Shown here piece by piece: positions 4,289-35,313 of a stretch of DNA of 64,000 nucleotides. The DNA lies in assembly GCA_963761035.1 (NCBI GenBank), contig CAVXFH010000002.1, positions 1,738,915 to 1,802,914 on the forward strand. The letters are read 5' to 3'. Under the pieces are notes generated by a model, which saw only the letters and a program-made list of their open reading frames with translations, searched no databases and had not been told where the DNA came from. Source of the stretch: an uncultured Gammaproteobacteria bacterium. Lineage in GTDB: Bacteria; Pseudomonadota; Gammaproteobacteria; DRLM01. Each line of letters opens with the position of its first letter. Position 1 is the first letter of the stretch. The position numbers and the translations under genes were made by a program.

Positions 4289-4362
4289 TGGAGCGGGTGA
4301 TGGGAATCGAACCCACGCTAGTAGCTTGGGAAGCTACAGTTCTACCATTGAACTACACCCGC
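4289..4362 (-). tRNA. tRNA-Gly (anticodon CCC)
   Basis: Reverse complement GCGGGTGTAGTTCAATGGTAGAACTGTAGCTTCCCAAGCTACTAGCGTGGGTTCGATTCCCATCACCCGCTCCA folds as a cloverleaf. Anticodon loop TTCCCAA; near-identical to E. coli glyU; CCA encoded. Confidence 0.92.
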
Positions 4363-25848: not shown

Positions 25849-26721
25849 ATGAAGATGATTTTCAGCATGACCGCCTTCGCGCGCCGCGAGGGAGAGACCC
25901 CGTGGGGCGTGTTGACCTGGGAGCTGCGCACCGTCAACCACCGTTATCTGGAAATCACGCCGCGCCTGCCCGAAGACTTCCGGGTGCTGGAATCCCAGGT
26001 GCGCGAGCGTATCGGCGCCGCCTTGCAGCGCGGCAAGGTGGAGTGCCAGCTGCGCTTCCAGTCCCTCGCCCAGCAATCCCCCGACTTCGCCCTCAACAAA
26101 GAGCTGATCGCCCGGCTGGTAACGGCGACCGCCGAGGTCGACCGCCTGTTGGCGCAACCGGCGGCGGTGAATGCCCTGGAGATTCTGCGCTGGCCCGGCA
26201 TCATCCAGGCGCCGCAGCCCGATCACGAACAAATGACGGCGGTCGCCATCCGAATTTTGGACGAGGCGCTGGCGGAATTGCAGGCCACACGCGCCCGCGA
26301 AGGCGCCAAGCTCAAGGAGCTGATCCTGCAGCGCTGCGAGGGCGTGGCGGCGCAGGCCGCCGCCGCCGCCCGGCGCCTGCCCGAGGTGCGCGCCCGTCTG
26401 CGCGAAAAACTACTGGCGCGCCTGGCGGAGGTGAAGGGCGAATTGGATCCGATGCGCGTCGAACAGGAGATGGTGTTGCTCAGCCAGCGCCTCGACGTGG
26501 AAGAAGAACTGGATCGCCTCGCCGCGCACCTGGCGGAAGTAAAACGCGTACTCGGCCAGAACGGTCCCGCCGGTCGCCGCCTGGATTTTCTGATGCAGGA
26601 ACTGCATCGCGAGGCCAACACCCTGGGCGCCAAGTCCGGTGACGTGGAGACCACCCGCGCGTCGATGGAGATGAAGGTGCTGATCGAACAGATGCGCGAG
26701 CAGGTGCAGAATATCGAGTAG
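25849..26721 (+). CDS. yicC: YicC/YloC family stress-induced protein
   Basis: N-terminus MIFSMTAFAR matches the E. coli YicC MIRSMTAYA; the ATG at 25855 may be the true start. Confidence 0.85.
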   Translation: MKMIFSMTAFARREGETPWGVLTWELRTVNHRYLEITPRLPEDFRVLESQVRERIGAALQRGKVECQLRFQSLAQQSPDFALNKELIARLVTATAEVDRLLAQPAAVNALEILRWPGIIQAPQPDHEQMTAVAIRILDEALAELQATRAREGAKLKELILQRCEGVAAQAAAAARRLPEVRARLREKLLARLAEVKGELDPMRVEQEMVLLSQRLDVEEELDRLAAHLAEVKRVLGQNGPAGRRLDFLMQELHREANTLGAKSGDVETTRASMEMKVLIEQMREQVQNIE

Positions 26722-26967
26722 AGAGCATAGGGGGCGATGGTGTACAGCCTCTCGAAGCTTCAAATCTAGCATTCCTGATTTTTCTTTCAGATTCGTAAAA
26801 GTTTGTCATGAGACTCTTTTTTTATATCCAATATGTCGTCACAGCGCTACTTTATTCGAAAGAACATTAGCTCGGCATGTTGGTGCTATTGCAGAGTCTT
26901 CCTTGGCAACCAAGAATATACCTGATTGGTTCTTCGGGGTTTGTTGCCGACAAATTGGGTATTCAAA

Positions 26968-29900
26968 ATGAACGCTAAATTGACAAGGTTTCGCATCTTG
27001 TCTTTGCCAGGGGGAAAACTTTTCCTCGGTTTGTTCTTCCTGTTTTCGTGTGTATCCAGCATTAGTGCAGTTGCTGCCGCTAATATTGCCGCGTTATCCG
27101 CGGTGACGGCGTCGTCCGAGACGCCATCCACCGGCCAGCTGGCGATAAAGGCGGTGGACGGAGTAATAGACGGGTATCCCGGGGATTACACCAAGGAGTG
27201 GGCCACCAATGGGCAGGGGGCGGGGGCCTGGATCCGACTGACCTGGCCGACGGCCTACACGGTTGACCAGATCGTGCTGTACGACCGCAAGAACACCACC
27301 GAACAAATTTTAAGCGGGACGCTGACGTTCAGCGACGGCAGCAGCGTGGCGGTCGGCACCCTGGACAATCTCGGCGCACCGAAGACGGTCGCCTTTACCC
27401 CGCGCACCATAACGTGGGTGCAGTTCACGATTAACTCCGTGAAGGCCGGCTCCAGCAACATCGGACTCATGGAGATGGAAGTAGACGGGGTATTGGCGGG
27501 GATCAACACGGCGCCGCAGATCACGGCCGGGCCCACCGCCAGCCCGGCGGATATTGGAGAGAACCAGACCTCGCAGCTGAGCGTGACGGCGACGGACCCG
27601 GAGAATGATGTCTTGACCTACACGTGGGTGCCGCAGAGCGGGACGATCACGGGGAGCGGCGCGACGGTGACCTTCAACCCGCCGGCGGTAACGGCGGACA
27701 CGGTAGTGCGGATCGATCTGACGGTGAGGGACCCGGGCGGCCTAACCGCCACCGGTTTCGTGAACGTCACGGTGCGGGATGTCGTGCAGAGTTCAGTCAA
27801 TATTGCCGCGTTATCCGCGGTGACGGCGTCGTCCGAGACGCCATCCACCGGCCAGCTGGCGATAAAGGCGGTGGACGGAGTAATAGACGGGTATCCCGGG
27901 GATTACACCAAGGAGTGGGCCACCAATGGGCAGGGGGCGGGGGCCTGGATCCGGCTGACCTGGCCGACGGCCTACACGGTTGACCAGATCGTGCTGTACG
28001 ACCGCAAGAACACCACCGAACAAATTTTAAGCGGGACGCTGACGTTCAGCGACGGCAGCAGCGTGGCGGTCGGCACCCTGGACAATCTCGGCGCACCGAA
28101 GACGGTCGCCTTTACCCCGCGCACCATAACGTGGGTGCAGTTTACGATTAACTCCGTGAAGGCCGGCTCGCAAAACATTGGACTCATGGAGATGCAGGCC
28201 TACGGGGTGGCGTCAAGCCGTAAATCAATTATGGTCGTAGTAGCGCACCCGGATGACGAGGCGCTGATGGCGGCCGGGGTGATGAAGCGTGCGCATGATA
28301 ATGGGGACGCCGTGAAGGTTGTGATTATCACCAATGGAGACGCCCAGGGCAAAAATGCGGGTCTGACACGCGAGGCGGAATCCAAGACGGCCGTGGCGGA
28401 CAAGCTGGGGTTGAGCGAGGACGACATCATTTTTCTGGGATACCCGGATTCCGGCTTATTGCCGATCTATAACGACCACCCGAATGCAACGGTTCCGCCC
28501 TACGTGAAGGGATCAACAGGCCAAAGCGCTACCTATGGCAATCAAGGCTTGGGCAGGGAGGATTTTCACAGATACTGGACGGGAGCGGCGGCGGATTACA
28601 ATCAGGCCAACGTCGTGGCCGATCTCAAGGAGTTGCTGAACCGCTATCAGCCCACCCAGATCTACACCCATTCGCCGTTTGATCTGCATTACGATCATCG
28701 CGCGACCTATTACGACTTGCGCGATGCGGCGCAATCCCTGATGAAGGAGCAGGCCACCTTCCATCCGGATGTGTATACCGCGATTATCCATCAACCCTAT
28801 CTTTATCCTTATAAGGACAAATGGGCGCAGGGGACCACCCCCACCTTATCGGTGCTTGACGACAGGGACGATCAATTTTGGCCGCTGCCGGCCTATGGGA
28901 GCGTGGGGACCGCATCCGGCGACCTGACGCTGATGAAGGCCCGGTTTGCCCCGACCCAGGCCCTGACCAAGCCGGCGGATCTGGATCTGACACTACTGGA
29001 CTGGGCAGACCGGCTGAGCCTGCCGGTGCCGGCGGTGATGCAGGATCCCAATGTAGTGAACAACCTCAAATATCAGATGATCGACAGCTATGTCTCGCAG
29101 GAGGCCGTCTGGGGCCTGCCCTTTGCCTTCGGCAAGAGCGACGAGGTCTTCTGGAAGCAGACATGGTCGCGCAATATTGCCCTGCGGGCGACGATCACCG
29201 CCTCCAGCCAGAATACGAAATTCTTCCAGGGGGCGGCAAACGTCGCCGACAGTATTGTGGATGGCTACCGGGACCAAAACAACGATGGGATTTCGGAAGG
29301 CAATAGTCAGGCGGAATGGGTCACAGCGGGCGAGAGAGAGGGCGCCTGGGTACAACTCGACTGGACGCAGCCCTACACGATCAACAAGGTGGTGCTCTAT
29401 GACCGGCCGAATCCGAGTGACCAGGTGCTGTCCGGGACGCTGAGCTTCAGCGACGGCTCAACGGTCAGTGTGGGGGCATTGCCCAATGACGGCTCGAAGT
29501 ATGAAGTGGACTTTGCGGCGCGGGAAGTGAGCTGGGCGCGGTTTACCGTGGATAGTGTGTCCGCCGCAACGGCAAACGTCGGCTTGGCGGAGATGGAGGT
29601 ATGGACGGCGGCGCCGCCGGCTGACAATCAGCCGCCGTTTTTTACCCGCGGCCCGACGGCATCGGCCCTGACGGGCGGCATGAGCTCGACACTCGCGGCG
29701 CCGGCCTATGACAGAGAGGGTGACCCGATCACCTGGACCTGGCAGTCGCAGCTGGGCGCCACGATTACCGGTTCGGGGGACACGGTGACGTATACGCCGC
29801 CCTACGGGGTAGGCGGCACGGATACCGTTACCGTCACGATTTCCGATGGTATCAACCCGCCTATCACGGCAAAGTTTGCGCTGGCATTGGATGAAAACAA

Positions 29901-30321
29901 CATTACCTATTTAGCGCAGGTGACGGCGTCGTCCGAGACGCCATCCACCGGCCAGTTGGCGATAAAGGCGGTGGACGGAGTAATAGACGGGTATCCCGGG
30001 GATTACACCAAGGAGTGGGCCACCAATGGGCAGGGGGCGGGGGCCTGGATCCGGCTGACCTGGCCGACGGCCTACACGGTTGACCAGATCGTGCTGTACG
30101 ACCGCAAGAACACCACCGAACAAATTTTAAGCGGGACGCTGACGTTCAGCGACGGCAGCAGCGTGGCGGTCGGCGCCCTGGACAATCTCGGCGCACCGAA
30201 GACGGTCGCCTTTACCCCGCGCACCATAACGTGGGTGCAGTTCACGATTAACTCCGTGAAGGCCGGATCGCACAACATCGGGCTCATGGAGATAGAAGTC
30301 TTTGGCGCGGCGGGTGACTAG
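26968..30321 (+). CDS. large secreted multidomain protein: signal peptide, 4 discoidin/F5-8-type-C-like carbohydrate-binding domains, 2 Ig/cadherin-like domains and a PIG-L (LmbE) family N-acetylglucosaminyl deacetylase domain
   Basis: 1117 aa from the ATG at 26968 (MNAKLTRFRILSLPGGKLFLGLFFLF...). Deacetylase motifs AHPDDE and HSPFDLHYDH in the centre. Repeated W..G.W..L.W......V.LYDR......SGTL.FSDGS..V..FT..SV.....GL.E.EV modules. Confidence 0.75.
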   Translation: MNAKLTRFRILSLPGGKLFLGLFFLFSCVSSISAVAAANIAALSAVTASSETPSTGQLAIKAVDGVIDGYPGDYTKEWATNGQGAGAWIRLTWPTAYTVDQIVLYDRKNTTEQILSGTLTFSDGSSVAVGTLDNLGAPKTVAFTPRTITWVQFTINSVKAGSSNIGLMEMEVDGVLAGINTAPQITAGPTASPADIGENQTSQLSVTATDPENDVLTYTWVPQSGTITGSGATVTFNPPAVTADTVVRIDLTVRDPGGLTATGFVNVTVRDVVQSSVNIAALSAVTASSETPSTGQLAIKAVDGVIDGYPGDYTKEWATNGQGAGAWIRLTWPTAYTVDQIVLYDRKNTTEQILSGTLTFSDGSSVAVGTLDNLGAPKTVAFTPRTITWVQFTINSVKAGSQNIGLMEMQAYGVASSRKSIMVVVAHPDDEALMAAGVMKRAHDNGDAVKVVIITNGDAQGKNAGLTREAESKTAVADKLGLSEDDIIFLGYPDSGLLPIYNDHPNATVPPYVKGSTGQSATYGNQGLGREDFHRYWTGAAADYNQANVVADLKELLNRYQPTQIYTHSPFDLHYDHRATYYDLRDAAQSLMKEQATFHPDVYTAIIHQPYLYPYKDKWAQGTTPTLSVLDDRDDQFWPLPAYGSVGTASGDLTLMKARFAPTQALTKPADLDLTLLDWADRLSLPVPAVMQDPNVVNNLKYQMIDSYVSQEAVWGLPFAFGKSDEVFWKQTWSRNIALRATITASSQNTKFFQGAANVADSIVDGYRDQNNDGISEGNSQAEWVTAGEREGAWVQLDWTQPYTINKVVLYDRPNPSDQVLSGTLSFSDGSTVSVGALPNDGSKYEVDFAAREVSWARFTVDSVSAATANVGLAEMEVWTAAPPADNQPPFFTRGPTASALTGGMSSTLAAPAYDREGDPITWTWQSQLGATITGSGDTVTYTPPYGVGGTDTVTVTISDGINPPITAKFALALDENNITYLAQVTASSETPSTGQLAIKAVDGVIDGYPGDYTKEWATNGQGAGAWIRLTWPTAYTVDQIVLYDRKNTTEQILSGTLTFSDGSSVAVGALDNLGAPKTVAFTPRTITWVQFTINSVKAGSHNIGLMEIEVFGAAGD
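27082..27476. repeat. intragenic ~395 bp near-identical repeat A (discoidin-like domain 1)
   Basis: Nucleotide-level near-identity with 27799..28193 and 29907..30290; the track also shows triplicated identical minus-strand shadow ORFs. Confidence 0.9.
27799..28193. repeat. intragenic repeat B (discoidin-like domain 2)
   Basis: Offset 717 bp from A; differs at only a few positions. Confidence 0.9.
29907..30290. repeat. intragenic repeat C (discoidin-like domain 4)
   Basis: Near-identical to A and B across ~384 bp. Confidence 0.9.
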
Positions 30322-31034
30322 GAATCGGAGTTTGGCGACATAGAAACCAGAACAATTTGTGACAGTAAAATGTTCTTTCGATGTGTAGTTTGGATTTCAT
30401 TGACTGCGGACACGAAGCGATTGGTGTCAAAATGATTACAGCTTTTGATAATCAATTTGGCGAGGGGGGGAATTTATAGATCACGAATCTTTATGAGATC
30501 GCCCAAGTAATGCGGGACTTAGAAGAGCGTGTTACTCCGGAGACGTCAGGTGAAAGGTGGTAAATACACTTTGCGCATGGAAAGCCGAGTCGGCTAAAAA
30601 GCTGGGGGAAGACTATATTTGCATTTGCGAATATCCCGATTTTTATGTCTACCCAAGTGTGTACCAGTAGCAAAGACCCATTGAAAATTAATTATTATTA
30701 ACAATTATATAAGCAGCTATTCTAGGTTCAGGTGCAACATTGAATGACCTATTGATCTGTCTTGCGAAGTTAGGCCGCCCGTTTAAAAGCCGCTCAAATG
30801 CGGCAGCTTCCGGACAAGAACGGACTTCCAGGTAGCCGCTACGGGAATCCGCTTATCATCTAGTGTAGTGAGTCGTTCTTGTCGGGACATTTATTCGATA
30901 GCGAGCTTTTACGGTATATTGTTTTCTATATGTTCCAGCAAGGTGACTCACTACACTCGTGCGTAAGATCAATAATCTATTTCTGGACCGATGGGTATTT
31001 TAATTAATGGTTAAGCTTCATTTATCAATGGAAA

Positions 31035-31457
31035 ATGGGTGTTTACAATACGCTTTCCCTGGAGCTTATGATTAATAAACACGCTTTACATGAGGCTACC
31101 CAGGTTGACGATCCGAATCGCGTCAAGGCGCTGCTCAAAGAGGCGCCTAATCTTGTTTTCAGCCAGGACTGGAATAACGACACCCCTTTGCATCTGGCGG
31201 CATACTTTGGTTACAGGGATGTCGCCGAATTGCTGCTGACGCATGGCGCGGATGTCAATGCCATTAACAGCTACGGCCGAACTCCTTTGCACAGGGCCGC
31301 GTTTAATGGCCACCAGGACATTGCGAAATTGCTGCTGAAGCATGGTGCCGATATCAACGCCAAGAACAATTTCGTCGATACGCCTCTGCATGAAGCCGTG
31401 GTAAATGGCAGCTATGCCGTAGCGGAATTGCTGCGCCAGCATGGCGGCCACGAATAA
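31035..31457 (+). CDS. ankyrin-repeat protein
   Basis: Three to four ANK repeats (TPLHLAAYFGYRDVAELLLTHGADVNA...TPLHRAAFNGHQDIAKLLLKHGADINA). Confidence 0.75.
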   Translation: MGVYNTLSLELMINKHALHEATQVDDPNRVKALLKEAPNLVFSQDWNNDTPLHLAAYFGYRDVAELLLTHGADVNAINSYGRTPLHRAAFNGHQDIAKLLLKHGADINAKNNFVDTPLHEAVVNGSYAVAELLRQHGGHE

Positions 31458-31699
31458 GCGGCGGTAAAACCTCCAAGCTGCCCCAGGCCGCCCTAGGCAA
31501 TTTATTTCTCGAGCGGCGTTGCGGCAATCGTGTTCCTGAAACAGCAAAAGCCGCTATTCGCGTCCGGCGTCCGGGGACGCAGCGTGCCCCTTCGCAACAA
31601 TAATGGCGCGGTTGAATGCCGACTTCCCGCAATGCTGACTGTTCGATTTCGGAGCGGACTATTGAACAGGGCTGCTTTCGGCCAACTCCAGCCTTACTC

Positions 31700-33061
31700 T
31701 TAATGGAGATCACCGTCTGCTTGCAAAATGATATCTGCCATCCCGATGCGTTCCAGATCGACGTCCCCGTAAGCGGTAACAAGCCGACGAAGACGGGCCT
31801 TCTGGTCTGGGCTTAGCGTTTGATCGCCTCTACCGACGATACCCTTATTAAAGCGCGTCTTCGCGGGATTCCCGTCAACGGCGCGGACAGCAGTCGCGCA
31901 TTCTTCGGAGGTTTTTTTAAGATCGAGAAAGCTGGCAATGCGGGCGATCGTCGCCGGCTTGTCCGCCACCATTTCCTCGTAGGTTACAAAGAGGCAATTC
32001 AGCCGGCCCAGTCGTTGTGCCCGTTCCCAGGATGCATAAAACCCGGCATACCAAGGCATAACATGATCGATGATCAAGTCGTACTTCCCCTGCTCATTCA
32101 GAGTCGGCCAGACATCGCCGAAAAAAGTGTCCGCAACCGCGCCATTATCTAAAAAACTGGAATAACTGATCACGACATCAGGGAGATTTCTCACCAGCAC
32201 GATTGGCCGAATATCAAATGCCTGCAAAATCTGCTCATTCGGCTTGCTCGCGCGGCAATGTTGCTGCGTAACGGTATTTTGGTACGCGCACTGGAGCAGA
32301 TGGGGTAGGTAAATCTCATGCTCGTACTGAATATAGGCGTAGGAAAGATTCGCCTCTTGGCAACCAGTCAGCGTGCACAATACCTCCTTGAGAAACGTCG
32401 AACCGCTTTTCGGCATACAAGCAATCAGCAGGTGCTTGCCCAACTGCGCCGGCGTTATGCCCGGAATAAAATCGCCCAGCACGGCTGGCTGGCCGGAATA
32501 GCCGAGTGCATTCGTCAATTCAATCCTCAAACTTGGATGGCTGGGATCGAGAGCCAGCCCCGTCCGTATCCATTTAATCGCAAGTGGATAATTTCCTCGT
32601 ATGCTTTGTTCCGTTGCAGCTCTGCAAAGCGCGTTTAGGAAATTATTTCGAATCTTTTGGTCATGCGGCGCCAGGGCGTACGCGTCACTGAAGATATTGA
32701 CGGCACGTTCCATATTTCCGGAGCGTATATGTAGTACTCCGAGGTTGCTCATGAAAGTGGCATTTTTCGGTTCCAGCCGCACAAGCTGTTCGCAGCTTAA
32801 TAAAGCGGTCGGGATGTCGCCTGTCGCCATCGACGCGTCGGCAATTTCGACCAGAGTTTTAATTCTGACCCTATCGGCCAGTGACTGTCCCTCACCATCA
32901 ATATCTTCCGCGAGAGCCGTCGGATTCGCCAATGAAATCAAAGAAGGGCTTCCCTTGTTATGAAGCATAGCCAATTTCTCCACAAAATGAATTGAGCCGT
33001 CGCGCACAGTCTGGACAGTCAAGCCATGGAAAATACCGATGCTGAAATACCGCTGCGCCAC
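31700..33061 (-). CDS. TPR-repeat / sulfotransferase-domain protein
   Basis: N-terminal TPR-like region; C-terminal sulfotransferase with 5'-PSB motif (CMPKSGSTFL) and 3'-PB-like motif (LVRNLPDVVISYSSF). Confidence 0.6.
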   Translation of the reverse strand: MAQRYFSIGIFHGLTVQTVRDGSIHFVEKLAMLHNKGSPSLISLANPTALAEDIDGEGQSLADRVRIKTLVEIADASMATGDIPTALLSCEQLVRLEPKNATFMSNLGVLHIRSGNMERAVNIFSDAYALAPHDQKIRNNFLNALCRAATEQSIRGNYPLAIKWIRTGLALDPSHPSLRIELTNALGYSGQPAVLGDFIPGITPAQLGKHLLIACMPKSGSTFLKEVLCTLTGCQEANLSYAYIQYEHEIYLPHLLQCAYQNTVTQQHCRASKPNEQILQAFDIRPIVLVRNLPDVVISYSSFLDNGAVADTFFGDVWPTLNEQGKYDLIIDHVMPWYAGFYASWERAQRLGRLNCLFVTYEEMVADKPATIARIASFLDLKKTSEECATAVRAVDGNPAKTRFNKGIVGRGDQTLSPDQKARLRRLVTAYGDVDLERIGMADIILQADGDLH

Positions 33062-33097
33062 CGGGCACAGCGAAGTTCAACATATGAAAAATGATAA

Positions 33098-33427
33098 TTA
33101 GGCGGGAGAAACGAGGGGTGGTGCGCGGGTGCGACGGTCGGTGCCGATCAACTTTGCCAAACGGAAATGACGTGTATAAAACTCCAACAAACGGACGATT
33201 ACAACTGCCATGGCAAGCATCGCCATGCCCACCAAGGCGTCGCCTAGCGCAGGAACGCTGAGATCAAGAGAATATAAGGCATCGGCGATAGAGCTGATAT
33301 CGCCGATGTCATAGTCGGAAAAATAATAGTTGCTCGCGAACGACGTGGTTTGCCCAACCAACAGCGCTATCACAATGATATAGCTGAAAAATCGGTTCAT
33401 AAGTTCCTGCGACGTTCTCGCGTCCAC
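33098..33427 (-). CDS. hypothetical small membrane protein (doubtful)
   Basis: ORF with two hydrophobic segments; no family; low-GC context. Confidence 0.25.
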   Translation of the reverse strand: MDARTSQELMNRFFSYIIVIALLVGQTTSFASNYYFSDYDIGDISSIADALYSLDLSVPALGDALVGMAMLAMAVVIVRLLEFYTRHFRLAKLIGTDRRTRAPPLVSPA

Positions 33428-33807
33428 ACATTATAGGTGCATTAAGTGATCTTAGAATCGCCTACTAATATATTCAAGTTTTATTACAATCATTTACATT
33501 TGCATGATCGGCGTTAAATCATGTCAACCTATGATAGGTAAGTACCCGTGCCACGATCTATTTAATGATCCGGAAGCCTCGTTGGCGTTCGGTCTGGAAA
33601 AGACATAGCGCCAAAAGTTGTTGACCGATTTCAATTGCTCCCGGGACATTCGCCCTGCGTACGATAACGGGGCGCACTAGGTCGGAAACGGATATTCGCT
33701 ATTTTGAGAGTGCGAAAAATAGTGATGGATATCGGGCCTGCTCAGCTTGTGTTATCCGCGCGATCTGATGCATGTTAGCGGGTATTATGCCTTTGAGACG
33801 GAACTTG

Positions 33808-35313
33808 ATGCCGCACGAAAAAGCATTCTTCGGCCATCCCGTCGGCCTGCGCACGCTGTTCTTCACCGAATTCTGGGAACGTTTCAGTTATTACGGCATG
33901 CGCGCGCTGCTGATTCTATTCATGACGGCGCCGGCGGCGGCGGGCGGACTCGGGTGGGAGACAGCGCGGGCGGGTATGATCTACGGCACCTACACCTCGC
34001 TGGTGTATTTGCTGGCGTTGCCCGGCGGCTGGATCGCCGATCGTTTCATCGGTCCGCGCAAGGCGACGCTGTACGGCGGCATCGCCATCATGTGCGGCCA
34101 TATCTGCCTTGCGATGACCGGTATGGTCACGTTCTATCTGGGACTGGCCTCGATTGTCGCGGGGACGGGTTTGCTCAAGCCCAACATCAGCAGCATGGTA
34201 GGGCAGTTGTACGGCGCCGAGGACAATCGGCGCGACGCCGGCTTCTCTATCTATTATCTGGGGATCAATCTCGGCGCCTTTGCCGCGCCGTTGGTGACGG
34301 GGTGGCTGGCGCAGGGCGAAGGTTTCAAAACGTCGCTGGCTTCGTGGGGCATTGCGCCGGAAACATCGTGGCATTGGGGTTTCGCCGCCGCCGCGGTGGG
34401 CATGGCGTTGGGCCTGCTTCAATATCTCGCGGGCGGACGCCATTTGGGTGAGGTCGGTTGTCACCCGGCGCATGCGGATAATGCGGCGGTGCCGGCCGCG
34501 GCGCGCAAGCGTTTGATCATAGGGAGCGGTGTAGTCGTCGCGGTGGTAGCGAGCATGGCGCTGCCGGTGTTCAACGGTATGTTGAGCGCCGCCGCCGTTG
34601 CCGACGGTGTAGGCTATCTGCTGTTGATCGTGACACTGGGATTCTTCGTCTGGTTGTTCGCGGCCAAGACCTGGACGGCGCTGGAGCGCAAGCAGCTGAT
34701 CGCGATCATGGTGCTGTTCGCGGGCGCCGCCGTGTTCTGGTCGCTGTTCGAACAGGCCGGTTCCACGCTCAACCTCTTTGCCCAGCGCAGCACGGACAAC
34801 GAGATGCTGGGCGTCTCCTTTCCGGCGAGCTGGTGGCAGTCGCTCAATTCACTGTACATCATCCTGCTGGTGCCGGTGATGGCGTGGTTGTGGGTGCGGC
34901 TCGGGCCGAAGGACCCGTCGAGTCCCGCCAAGTTCGCCTTCGGTCTGTTGTTCGCGGCTCTGGGTTTCGGCGTCCTGGCGCTGGCGGCGCAACTCGCCGC
35001 CGGCGGCGTGCGCGTCAGTCCGGTGTGGCTGGCGCTGGTGTATCTGTTGCACACCGTCGGCGAGTTGTGCCTGAGTCCGGTGGGATTGAGCGCCATGACC
35101 AGGCTGGCGCCGGCGCGCATCGCGGGGCTGGTCATGGGTGCGTGGTTCCTCGCGTCGTCGGTGGGCAATTTTCTGGGCGGCGCCATGGCGAGTCTGTACG
35201 AAACCTTTGCCTTGCCGGCGCTGTTTACGGCGATTACGGCGGTGGCATTGGTCGCCACCGTGCTGATGGCGCTGGCGATCAAGCCGCTGGCGCGGATGTT
35301 GGCGCGGCGTTGA
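33808..35313 (+). CDS. POT/PTR2 family proton-dependent oligopeptide transporter (DtpA/DtpT-like)
   Basis: Signature ERFSYYGMRALLILFM and 12-14 TM helices. Start set to the ATG at 33808 by comparison with the DtpA N-terminus; track start 33772. Confidence 0.85.
   Translation: MPHEKAFFGHPVGLRTLFFTEFWERFSYYGMRALLILFMTAPAAAGGLGWETARAGMIYGTYTSLVYLLALPGGWIADRFIGPRKATLYGGIAIMCGHICLAMTGMVTFYLGLASIVAGTGLLKPNISSMVGQLYGAEDNRRDAGFSIYYLGINLGAFAAPLVTGWLAQGEGFKTSLASWGIAPETSWHWGFAAAAVGMALGLLQYLAGGRHLGEVGCHPAHADNAAVPAAARKRLIIGSGVVVAVVASMALPVFNGMLSAAAVADGVGYLLLIVTLGFFVWLFAAKTWTALERKQLIAIMVLFAGAAVFWSLFEQAGSTLNLFAQRSTDNEMLGVSFPASWWQSLNSLYIILLVPVMAWLWVRLGPKDPSSPAKFAFGLLFAALGFGVLALAAQLAAGGVRVSPVWLALVYLLHTVGELCLSPVGLSAMTRLAPARIAGLVMGAWFLASSVGNFLGGAMASLYETFALPALFTAITAVALVATVLMALAIKPLARMLARR

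Follow-up and report, generated by a model that had tools for sequence, protein, structure and literature searches.

Probable stepwise filling of an insertion hot spot at the 3′ end of yicC, with a deacetylase and a sulfotransferase as chance neighbours

The locus discussed here lies in a 64-kb stretch of DNA from an uncultured gammaproteobacterium (this whole stretch is called the window), in which a de-N-acetylase gene and a sulfotransferase gene are found between the housekeeping gene yicC and a POT-type transporter gene. The question it raises is whether these two enzymes work together. A sequence-only reading of the window had raised this as a speculative possibility, namely that the deacetylase frees the amine of N-acetylglucosamine (GlcNAc) and that the neighbouring sulfotransferase N-sulfates it, so that the pair would make or edit sulfated aminosugars as a bacterial analogue of the eukaryotic heparan-sulfate N-deacetylase/N-sulfotransferase (NDST). 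Sulfated glycans being rare in bacteria, an NDST-like route to N-sulfated aminosugars would be notable. Such a coupling, however, is not supported: the genes of the deacetylase and the sulfotransferase lie side by side by chance, and neither enzyme would act on the products of the other. In all probability, yicC ends in a hot spot of recombination or insertion, where genes without functional relation to one another came in on at least two separate occasions.

The four genes that had been read between yicC and POT, namely a deacetylase, an ankyrin-repeat protein, a sulfotransferase with tetratricopeptide repeats (TPR) and a small membrane open reading frame (ORF), were all recovered in the places assigned to them, by ORF translation and Pfam/NCBIfam searches. 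The features on which the argument depends are the following.

25849..26721, plus strand: yicC (YicC/YloC endoribonuclease), the left flank (Pfam/NCBIfam).
26709-26721, plus strand: last 13 nt of yicC, donated by the later insert, GAATATCGAGTAG (junction comparison with contig L172 and relatives).
26709..30736, no strand assigned: second-step insert of 4,028 bp, with a substitute yicC 3′ end, an AT-rich leader, the DUF7402/PIG-L gene and its 3′ flank (blastn of L172 against the window, junction alignment).
26968..30321, plus strand: secreted multidomain LmbE/PIG-L-family de-N-acetylase (Pfam, hydrophobic peak, paralogue start).
28231..28716, plus strand: PIG-L catalytic domain of the deacetylase (Pfam, motifs).
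27082..27491, 27799-28208 and 29919-30299, plus strand: DUF7402 DNA repeat copies 1, 2 and 3 (repeat search).
30729..30747, plus strand: decayed vestige of the previous yicC 3′ end, CAGGTGCA--ACATTGAATGA (L172 junction comparison).
30748..33807, no strand assigned: first-step block of atypical composition, with the ankyrin, TPR-sulfotransferase and small-ORF genes (L172, relatives, composition).
31035..31457, plus strand: ankyrin-repeat-only protein of 140 aa (Pfam/NCBIfam; Ank_2, E 1.7e-37).
31681..33684, minus strand: two-gene cassette, comprising a conserved upstream region, the small ORF and the sulfotransferase gene (homology to L081).
31700..32968, minus strand: TPR plus SULT-like sulfotransferase of 422 aa, dependent on 3′-phosphoadenosine 5′-phosphosulfate (PAPS) (Pfam; Sulfotransfer_1, E 4.3e-15).
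33098..33400, minus strand: small conserved protein of 100 aa without family match (homologue alignment).
33808..35313, plus strand: POT/DtpT-type oligopeptide:H+ symporter, the right flank (Pfam/NCBIfam, homology to relatives).

The first piece of evidence came from the comparison with relatives, which were collected by a YicC scan with one genome per species. The YicC proteins of the four closest (L001-L004) are 85-88% identical to that of the window. DNA homology to these four genomes ended at the yicC stop (26721/26722) and restarted at 33804-33811, and this gap identified the 7.1 kb in between (26722-33807) as an insertion. The 7.1 kb are missing from three of the four (L001, L002 and L003), in which the POT gene lies within about 10-130 nt of the yicC end, and none of the 80 yicC loci contained a homologue of the PIG-L, ankyrin, sulfotransferase or small-ORF genes. 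The region is therefore variable and not ancestral, as expected from the earlier proposal that it had been acquired. Because homology to the relatives begins at ATG 33808, this codon, and not that at 33772, is most likely the start of the POT gene. In the fourth relative, L004, the same junction carried another cargo: a low-GC (guanine plus cytosine content 0.44) gene on the minus strand (L004:10001-13940), encoding a 644-aa protein with TPR and an S-adenosylmethionine-dependent methyltransferase, and the yicC of L004 breaks off at codon 256 of 290. The presence of a different cargo indicated that the yicC 3′ end is a recurrent insertion point. As a side observation from this sister lineage, the site seemingly serves as a recurrent landing place for genes that combine TPR with a group transferase. 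A specific TPR arm common to the L004 methyltransferase and the window sulfotransferase was considered and rejected, the similarity being generic (25%).

The order of events was revealed by L172, an independent 15-kb contig from a short-read metagenome of the Joint Genome Institute (JGI), which was retrieved by an exact-sequence look-up of the small ORF. Over 14.2 kb, this contig and the window share 99.5-99.8% identity (blastn), and the genes of the contig follow the order yicC, ankyrin, sulfotransferase, small ORF and POT, that is, the INTERMEDIATE state. It lacks window positions 26709-30736 (4,028 bp), and hence the deacetylase gene. In L172, yicC ends in ...CAGGTGCAAAACATTGAATGA, while in the window it ends in ...CAGGTGCAGAATATCGAGTAG (26698-26721), one base off the yicC ends of L001 and L003. 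The L172-type end, minus two bases (CAGGTGCAACATTGAATGA), is found in the window at 30729-30747, downstream of the deacetylase gene, and L172 keeps this same sequence, plus two A, as its genuine yicC end; the 287 nt that follow the remnant in the window correspond to the intergenic region before the ankyrin gene in L172. An 8-nt repeat, CAGGTGCA, bounds the 4,028-bp insert (26701-26708 and 30729-30736); its flanking repeat of the yicC 3′ end is imperfect and about 19-21 nt long, and no integrase or transposase lies nearby. The yicC 3′ end supplied by the insert is in frame and has diverged synonymously. These junctions showed that, in a first step, an atypical block of about 3.06 kb (30748-33807) came between yicC and POT and that, in a second step, a 4.03-kb segment (26709-30736) entered the last codons of yicC. 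The state of L172 and the decayed yicC end thus make the deacetylase segment younger than the ankyrin/sulfotransferase block, and, since L172 holds the ankyrin, sulfotransferase and small-ORF genes without the deacetylase, the deacetylase and the sulfotransferase arrived in separate events. Briefly, the first step brought the ankyrin-only gene and a cassette of two genes, one for a small membrane protein and the next for a cytoplasmic TPR plus SULT-like sulfotransferase, and the second carried a synonymous substitute for the yicC 3′ end, with a secreted deacetylase as its cargo, leaving the decayed old end downstream. With its preserved scar, the locus offers a clean and datable case of a housekeeping gene whose 3′ end has taken up nested insertions.

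The interval had been described as a stretch richer in AT than its surroundings, a description that fits one part of it. Compared with the GC content of the 64-kb window (0.584), the block 30322-33807 has a GC of 0.493, the lowest of any 3.5-kb stretch in the 64 kb (mean 0.585, standard deviation 0.025), and it is the strongest tetranucleotide outlier of the window (z 3.5-4.0). Consistently, GC at third codon positions (GC3) is 0.61 for the ankyrin gene, 0.57 for the sulfotransferase and 0.60 for the small ORF, and 0.84 and 0.82 for yicC and POT. The deacetylase gene, which takes up about half of the interval, has instead a GC of 0.606 and a GC3 of 0.77, in line with its housekeeping neighbours (0.75-0.84). 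The supposed low-GC islet is therefore made of a low-GC half and a host-like half, and the compositional check proposed earlier confirmed a deviation for the right half but not for the deacetylase gene. The two spacers singled out as AT-rich, 26722..26967 and 30322..31034, are indeed so (GC 0.415 and 0.417, compared to 0.589 in the rest of the window). The latter, of 713 bp, is composite, as it consists of 407 nt of deacetylase 3′ flank, the 19-nt remnant of the yicC end and the 287-nt yicC-ankyrin intergenic region. Rfam at gathering thresholds found only a tRNA-Gly (4289-4362), a scan of 30250-33850 at E <= 1 gave no Rfam match, and scans for promoters and terminators remained at background level.

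The host-like composition of the deacetylase gene could be explained by the relationship of its product to other proteins of the same genome. The long ORF spans 26926-30321 (plus strand) and yields a protein of 1,117 aa from ATG 26968, the most likely start because the paralogue P0122 likewise begins MNAKLTRF... Its domain order is signal peptide, DUF7402, PKD/immunoglobulin-like (Ig) domain, DUF7402, PIG-L, a diverged DUF7402, a Big_9/cadherin-like Ig domain and DUF7402. At the DNA level, copies 2 and 3 of the DUF7402 repeat are 97-98% identical to copy 1, and copies 1 and 2 are 100% identical over their first 300 nt. When the protein was numbered according to its database entry P0121, which begins 10 residues after ATG 26968, residues 1-400 proved to be 99-100% identical to the N-terminus of P0122 (DUF7402 plus an SGNH/GDSL esterase) and residues 422-1020 were 100% identical to P0126, another DUF7402 plus PIG-L protein, while the last DUF7402 was again of the P0122 type. 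Both P0122 and P0126 have their genes elsewhere on the 3.02-Mb contig that includes the window. The deacetylase thus appears to be a mosaic of two same-genome paralogues, made by recombination at home rather than foreign, and its composition resembles that of the host because the gene arose among the paralogues of this genome instead of coming in with the AT-rich block. In this respect, the interest of the gene lies in a secreted, lectin-decorated deacetylase assembled by recombination among the paralogues of one genome. It was also observed that the source genome encodes at least three large secreted DUF7402 proteins with segments common at 99-100% amino acid identity, one of which has an SGNH/GDSL esterase in place of PIG-L; in this protein set, lectin modules and heads of the carbohydrate-esterase or deacetylase type look like recombining cassettes.

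Regarding its likely activity, the protein matched DUF7402 four times (E 2e-202) and PIG-L (PF02585) with E 5.5e-25 and 88.8 bits, compared to a gathering cut-off of 28.2. The LmbE-like superfamily is defined by the motif HXD1D2 and a further His, with a spacer of 97-148 residues (PMC4101496). The corresponding metal-binding/general-base motif of the window protein is intact (AHPDDE at 28243-28260 and HYDH at 28687-28698), with a spacer of 144-147 residues, and 106 of 120 family hits contain HxDD. The characterized members of the superfamily (MshB, BshB, PIG-L and the teicoplanin deacetylase) are small cytoplasmic or endoplasmic reticulum enzymes acting on small glycosides, whereas the window protein, which agrees with them in its Pfam match and motif, is considerably longer, is predicted to be secreted and contains four discoidin-like DUF7402 and Ig-like domains. 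The combination of DUF7402 and PIG-L is common (897 hits at E <= 1e-10, with the source name 'PIG-L/LmbE family deacetylase'). A literature search found 'DUF7402' named in one unrelated paper. Two homologues on long contigs were examined for their surroundings. In one neighbourhood (L168), a dTDP-sugar isomerase, Wzm/Wzt, glycosyltransferases and a second DUF7402 protein were found, and another (L169) contained glycosyltransferases, DegT and the exosortase EpsH/EpsI. The location of these relatives in exopolysaccharide (EPS) or O-antigen clusters suggests that an extracellular polysaccharide is the target. The deacetylase would be exported by Sec, would bind a glycan through its discoidin-like DUF7402 modules and would then strip the N-acetyl group from a polysaccharide containing GlcNAc or N-acetylgalactosamine (GalNAc) by the Zn-dependent LmbE mechanism. 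It is a member of a large family that has representatives in EPS/O-antigen clusters and none characterized.

The sulfotransferase ORF spans 31700-33061 (minus strand), and the gene calls differ: the protein has 453 aa as called for L172, whereas the NCBI copy (P0001), of 422 aa, begins at M32, nt 32968. The 31-codon extension (32969-33061, starting at GTG 33061) is conserved as DNA in contigs L164-L167, but there it lies in a frame other than that of the sulfotransferase, which makes the 422-aa start (ATG 32968) likely. The protein starts with an arm of about 3.5 TPR repeats, followed by the catalytic domain. Cytosolic SULTs bind PAPS by means of a 5′-phosphosulfate-binding (5′-PSB) loop, a 3′-phosphate-binding (3′-PB) element and a GxxGxxK loop. 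The window protein presents PKSGST (32396-32413), TQQHCRA (32249-32269), RNLPDVVIS (32165-32191) and FNKGIVGRG (31826-31852), which provide the counterparts of these elements (PKSGST, R..D...S and the GxxGxxK-like NKGxxGRG) together with a conserved His in TQQHCRA. Among 25 homologues, PKSGS is invariant and TQQHCRA, the 3′-PB R..D...S and RFNKGxxGRG are invariant or nearly so, with the R, D, S and N.G..GRG positions invariant, and the 5′-PSB motif was present in 95 of 120 hits. The PAPS-binding residues, whose absence on alignment would have spoken against the earlier assignment, are therefore all kept. These elements aligned to those of SULT1D1 and oestrogen sulfotransferase (EST) in a phmmer search of the PDB, the invariant His of TQQHCRA falling two residues off the SULT catalytic His. 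A PDB profile search with the full alignment was swamped by TPR proteins and was rerun with the catalytic domain alone, for which the best sequence match was SULT1D1 (E 5.5e-4), followed by EST. The AlphaFold model (mean predicted local distance difference test, pLDDT, 87.7; predicted TM-score, pTM, 0.81) matched SULT7A1, SULT1C1, SULT1A1 and EST in Foldseek (E 1.5e-6 to 1e-5; target-normalised TM-score 0.5-0.65); the top match of the full model was 5djs, the TPR-containing O-GlcNAc transferase (OGT) of the bacterium Thermobaculum. The likeness to SULT1/2/7 (Sulfotransfer_1) is accompanied by clear differences, since the window protein is bacterial, has an N-terminal TPR arm and is only about 15-20% identical.

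The family to which this enzyme belongs is large. In total, 296 of the scored candidates were homologues at E <= 1e-5, the best of them nearly all TPR plus sulfotransferase and the weaker ones often the sulfotransferase domain only. Two paralogues, 64-65% identical, are encoded outside the window in the same genome. Exact-sequence look-ups of the 453-aa ORF and of the paralogues P0004 and P0005 gave no match, nor did tblastn of the sulfotransferase against plasmids, and a literature search for TPR-sulfotransferases found no characterized member. The neighbourhoods of the homologues are unrelated to one another. A marine metagenome contig (L111:3945-6915) carries two or three TPR-sulfotransferase-like genes in tandem, which, together with the three paralogues of the source genome, suggests that the family expands by duplication. 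The enzyme would use PAPS in the cytoplasm to perform O-sulfation, with the TPR arm recruiting a protein partner or acceptor. Targeting of a protein substrate by this arm is conceivable by analogy with OGT and SPINDLY, where an N-terminal TPR superhelix is likewise followed by a nucleotide-activated group transferase, but the resemblance is architectural only: the catalytic fold is another one, and the donor is PAPS rather than UDP-GlcNAc or GDP-fucose. Bacteria can employ cytoplasmic sulfotransferases to sulfate an extracellular polysaccharide, an example being the synechan xss cluster of Synechocystis (PMC8205485). The sulfotransferases of such loci are described as belonging to the polysaccharide biosynthesis system, whereas no glycosyltransferase or export gene was found near the sulfotransferase in the window or in the homologous contexts examined.

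With both enzymes described, the proposed coupling can be weighed. The locus does resemble NDST in combining a GlcNAc-type de-N-acetylase with a PAPS-dependent sulfotransferase of PF00685, within 3 kb of each other, both with intact catalytic motifs and in a lineage-specific region. However, the heparan-sulfate NDST is one bifunctional Golgi-lumenal polypeptide, in which both activities share the compartment and the substrate chain, whereas the window has two genes on opposite strands (the deacetylase on plus, the sulfotransferase on minus), with the ankyrin gene between them, of differing composition and with different arrival times, as evidenced by the block without deacetylase in L172. Their products are predicted to reside in different compartments, a difficulty that the sequence-only reading had rightly raised: the deacetylase has a predicted Sec-type signal peptide (N-terminal hydrophobic peak 2.32), while neither the sulfotransferase (peak 0.89) nor the ankyrin protein showed one in sequence-based prediction. 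The types of enzyme do not fit either. The deacetylase has the LmbE/PIG-L fold and gave no match to Pfam HSNSD, the deacetylase domain of NDST, and the sulfotransferase fold matches cytosolic SULTs, with no NDST or heparan-sulfate sulfotransferase among the PDB sequence matches or the top 50 Foldseek matches. Finally, co-occurrence was examined around 80 metagenomic sulfotransferase loci (397 kb of flanks), in three further sulfotransferase contexts (L081, L082 and the P0011 contig) and, from the deacetylase side, in L168 and L169. No PIG-L/DUF7402, ankyrin or small-ORF homologue was found in the 80 loci, no PIG-L/DUF7402 or ankyrin gene in the three further contexts and no sulfotransferase in the two EPS clusters of the deacetylase homologues. 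These five independent lines (arrival, strands and composition, compartments, co-occurrence and enzyme types) argue against coupling and make an NDST analogue extremely improbable. As the adjacency is accidental, the locus is not to be pursued for N-sulfated aminosugars.

Two other explanations concern how the genes came together. According to one, the four genes form a single horizontally acquired islet, delivered on one mobile element, in agreement with the absence of the whole 7.1 kb from L001-L003 and with the AT-rich spacers flanking the genes. This is very unlikely considering the intermediate state of L172, the host-like GC3 of the deacetylase gene and the near-identity of segments of its product to two paralogues from this genome, the occurrence elsewhere of the sulfotransferase-small ORF cassette without the ankyrin or deacetylase genes, and the lack of any integrase, transposase or tRNA in or beside the interval (ORF list, Rfam). 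According to the other, the presence of the deacetylase gene at this site is an assembly chimera, an artefact of near-identical DUF7402 repeats without any biological insertion. In effect, two paralogues of the same contig account for the protein as a perfect mosaic, the gene has internal repeats of 300-410 nt at 97-100% identity and it is missing from the independent assembly L172. Yet both junctions lie in unique sequence, the in-frame, synonymously diverged yicC 3′ end of the insert is only one base off those of L001 and L003, the decayed old end at the far side is a recombination scar that no assembler would invent, and no other part of the window matches the AT-rich flanks (26722-26967 and 30322-30728), so that a chimera appears unlikely. 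The explanation preferred here, stepwise filling of a hot spot with unrelated genes, nevertheless has points against it. The order of events rests on the single short-read contig L172, for which a collapsed assembly or a lineage deletion is formally possible, although the remnant at 30729-30747 makes the yicC-ankyrin junction older than the deacetylase even if L172 was derived by deletion. The mosaic with 100% amino acid identity could be, in part, an assembly error in a repeat-rich gene; the junction scar argues that the insertion of the segment itself is real. For the first step, repeat searches around the AT-rich block and the cassette revealed no terminal inverted repeats or target-site duplications, and no recombinase was found. 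Lastly, only 43 of the 80 contigs with sulfotransferase homologues have a flank of at least 4 kb, which limits the co-occurrence test.

Stepwise filling leaves both enzymes as new members of large, known and uncharacterized families, and the architecture of the locus is ordinary genome plasticity; the sole element with some potential for novelty is the cassette formed by the small protein and the sulfotransferase. The small protein has two hydrophobic segments, the first an N-terminal helix, separated by an acidic loop whose net charge is -4 to -6 in four of the five members, and it ends in a basic tail (+2 to +4), in which F74-Y75-x-R77 and R-x-P-P are invariant across the five aligned homologues. 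Its family is tiny, as only four clusters among 1.84 billion representatives matched it. A small ORF followed by a sulfotransferase gene on the same strand was found in four lineages: the window with L172 and L173, L164-L167, L081 and L170. In L164-L167, the small ORF is 80%, the sulfotransferase 91% and the DNA about 90% identical to the window (in L165/L166, 90% over 33546-32038, where those contigs end), and the respective values for L081 are 42%, 73% and 75%. In L170, the small ORF is 57% identical and the downstream enzyme is a TPR-less Sulfotransfer_1 protein of 233 aa, 23-24% identical to the catalytic domain of the window protein. The fifth member comes from a contig of 600 nt, where the gene downstream is convergent. 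The left neighbours of the cassette vary (POT, a Mur-ligase-like gene or yggX), and the stretch homologous to L081 forms a unit of 2.0 kb (31681-33684), outside which the ankyrin gene lies. About 150-290 nt upstream of the small ORF (33401-33684) are also conserved (92% in L164-L167 and 73% in L081) and gave no Rfam match; non-coding DNA is seldom conserved to this degree, which suggests that these loci have a promoter or regulatory region in common. In view of the four lineages, three neighbourhoods and two sulfotransferase subfamilies, the cassette is hard to explain by shared descent alone, and we take the two genes to be functionally linked. In a separate observation, L081 carries, just downstream of the sulfotransferase and convergent to it, two genes with a formylglycine-generating-enzyme-like (FGE-sulfatase) domain (L081:5431-7531), a possible tie to sulfate-ester metabolism.

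As for the nature of this link, the best partner candidate for the sulfotransferase would be the small membrane protein encoded upstream, acting as membrane anchor or as acceptor. The pair may thus constitute a dedicated two-component sulfation module, in which the small protein either tethers the enzyme at the inner face of the membrane or is itself O-sulfated on Tyr75, within EFYTR of the basic cytoplasmic tail, its sole invariant hydroxyl residue. This is an unlikely proposition, and, if true, either role would represent a previously undescribed kind of bacterial protein sulfation. A comparable arrangement is that of the raxX-raxSTAB cluster of Xanthomonas (PMC6637879), where a small ORF by a PAPS-dependent sulfotransferase gene gives a tyrosine-sulfated peptide. 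By comparison, the small ORF of the window might encode a ribosomal peptide that the adjoining enzyme sulfates on tyrosine prior to export. Both systems have a small ORF adjoining a PAPS-dependent sulfotransferase gene in a compact, patchily distributed cassette, and the conservation of the pair in four lineages and two subfamilies, the signal-like N-terminus, the acidic, Tyr-rich loop (SDYDIGD) and the invariance of Y75 in the basic tail would fit. However, the Tyr-Asp of the loop, considered as a conserved sulfation site, had to be rejected as it is not invariant over the five homologues (P0245 has AHK), which leaves no conserved Asp-Tyr site. Moreover, neither a peptidase-ABC exporter nor a RaxA/RaxB-like gene was present in the window interval, L081, L164-L167 or L170; the small protein is hydrophobic and membrane-like, with an uninformative AlphaFold model (pLDDT 52) that was not used; and more than 80 more distant sulfotransferase homologues lack the small ORF. 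The enzyme itself belongs to another subfamily, the SULT-like PF00685, and the only protein-tyrosine sulfotransferase among its PDB matches had E = 0.87, compared to 5.5e-4 for the best SULT. A RaxX-like peptide is therefore quite unlikely. In any case, the cassette provides a testable handle on a large and wholly uncharacterized bacterial family of TPR-sulfotransferases.

The ankyrin gene is not part of this cassette. The sequence-only reading had regarded ankyrin proteins as rare in free-living bacteria and common in host-interacting ones, but the claim of rarity is weak: tblastn against plasmids retrieved matches to small, generic ankyrin-only proteins, at most 48% identical, in Bacillus, rhizobia, Ralstonia, Streptomyces, Pseudomonas and Deinococcus. 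PADLOC returned generic ankyrin matches only and no defence system. The gene alone says little about host interaction.

Apart from this interval, the window contains other compositional outliers. The second one spans 60357-63228 (GC 0.52-0.54, tetranucleotide z 2.2-2.7) and includes a 470-aa ORF without Pfam match (60357-61769, minus strand) and a di-haem cytochrome c gene (62425-63228, plus strand). A small low-GC pocket at 14707-15405 (GC 0.46-0.48) holds a gene for a cupredoxin-like protein (14965-15405, minus strand) and an overlapping 102-aa ORF without match.

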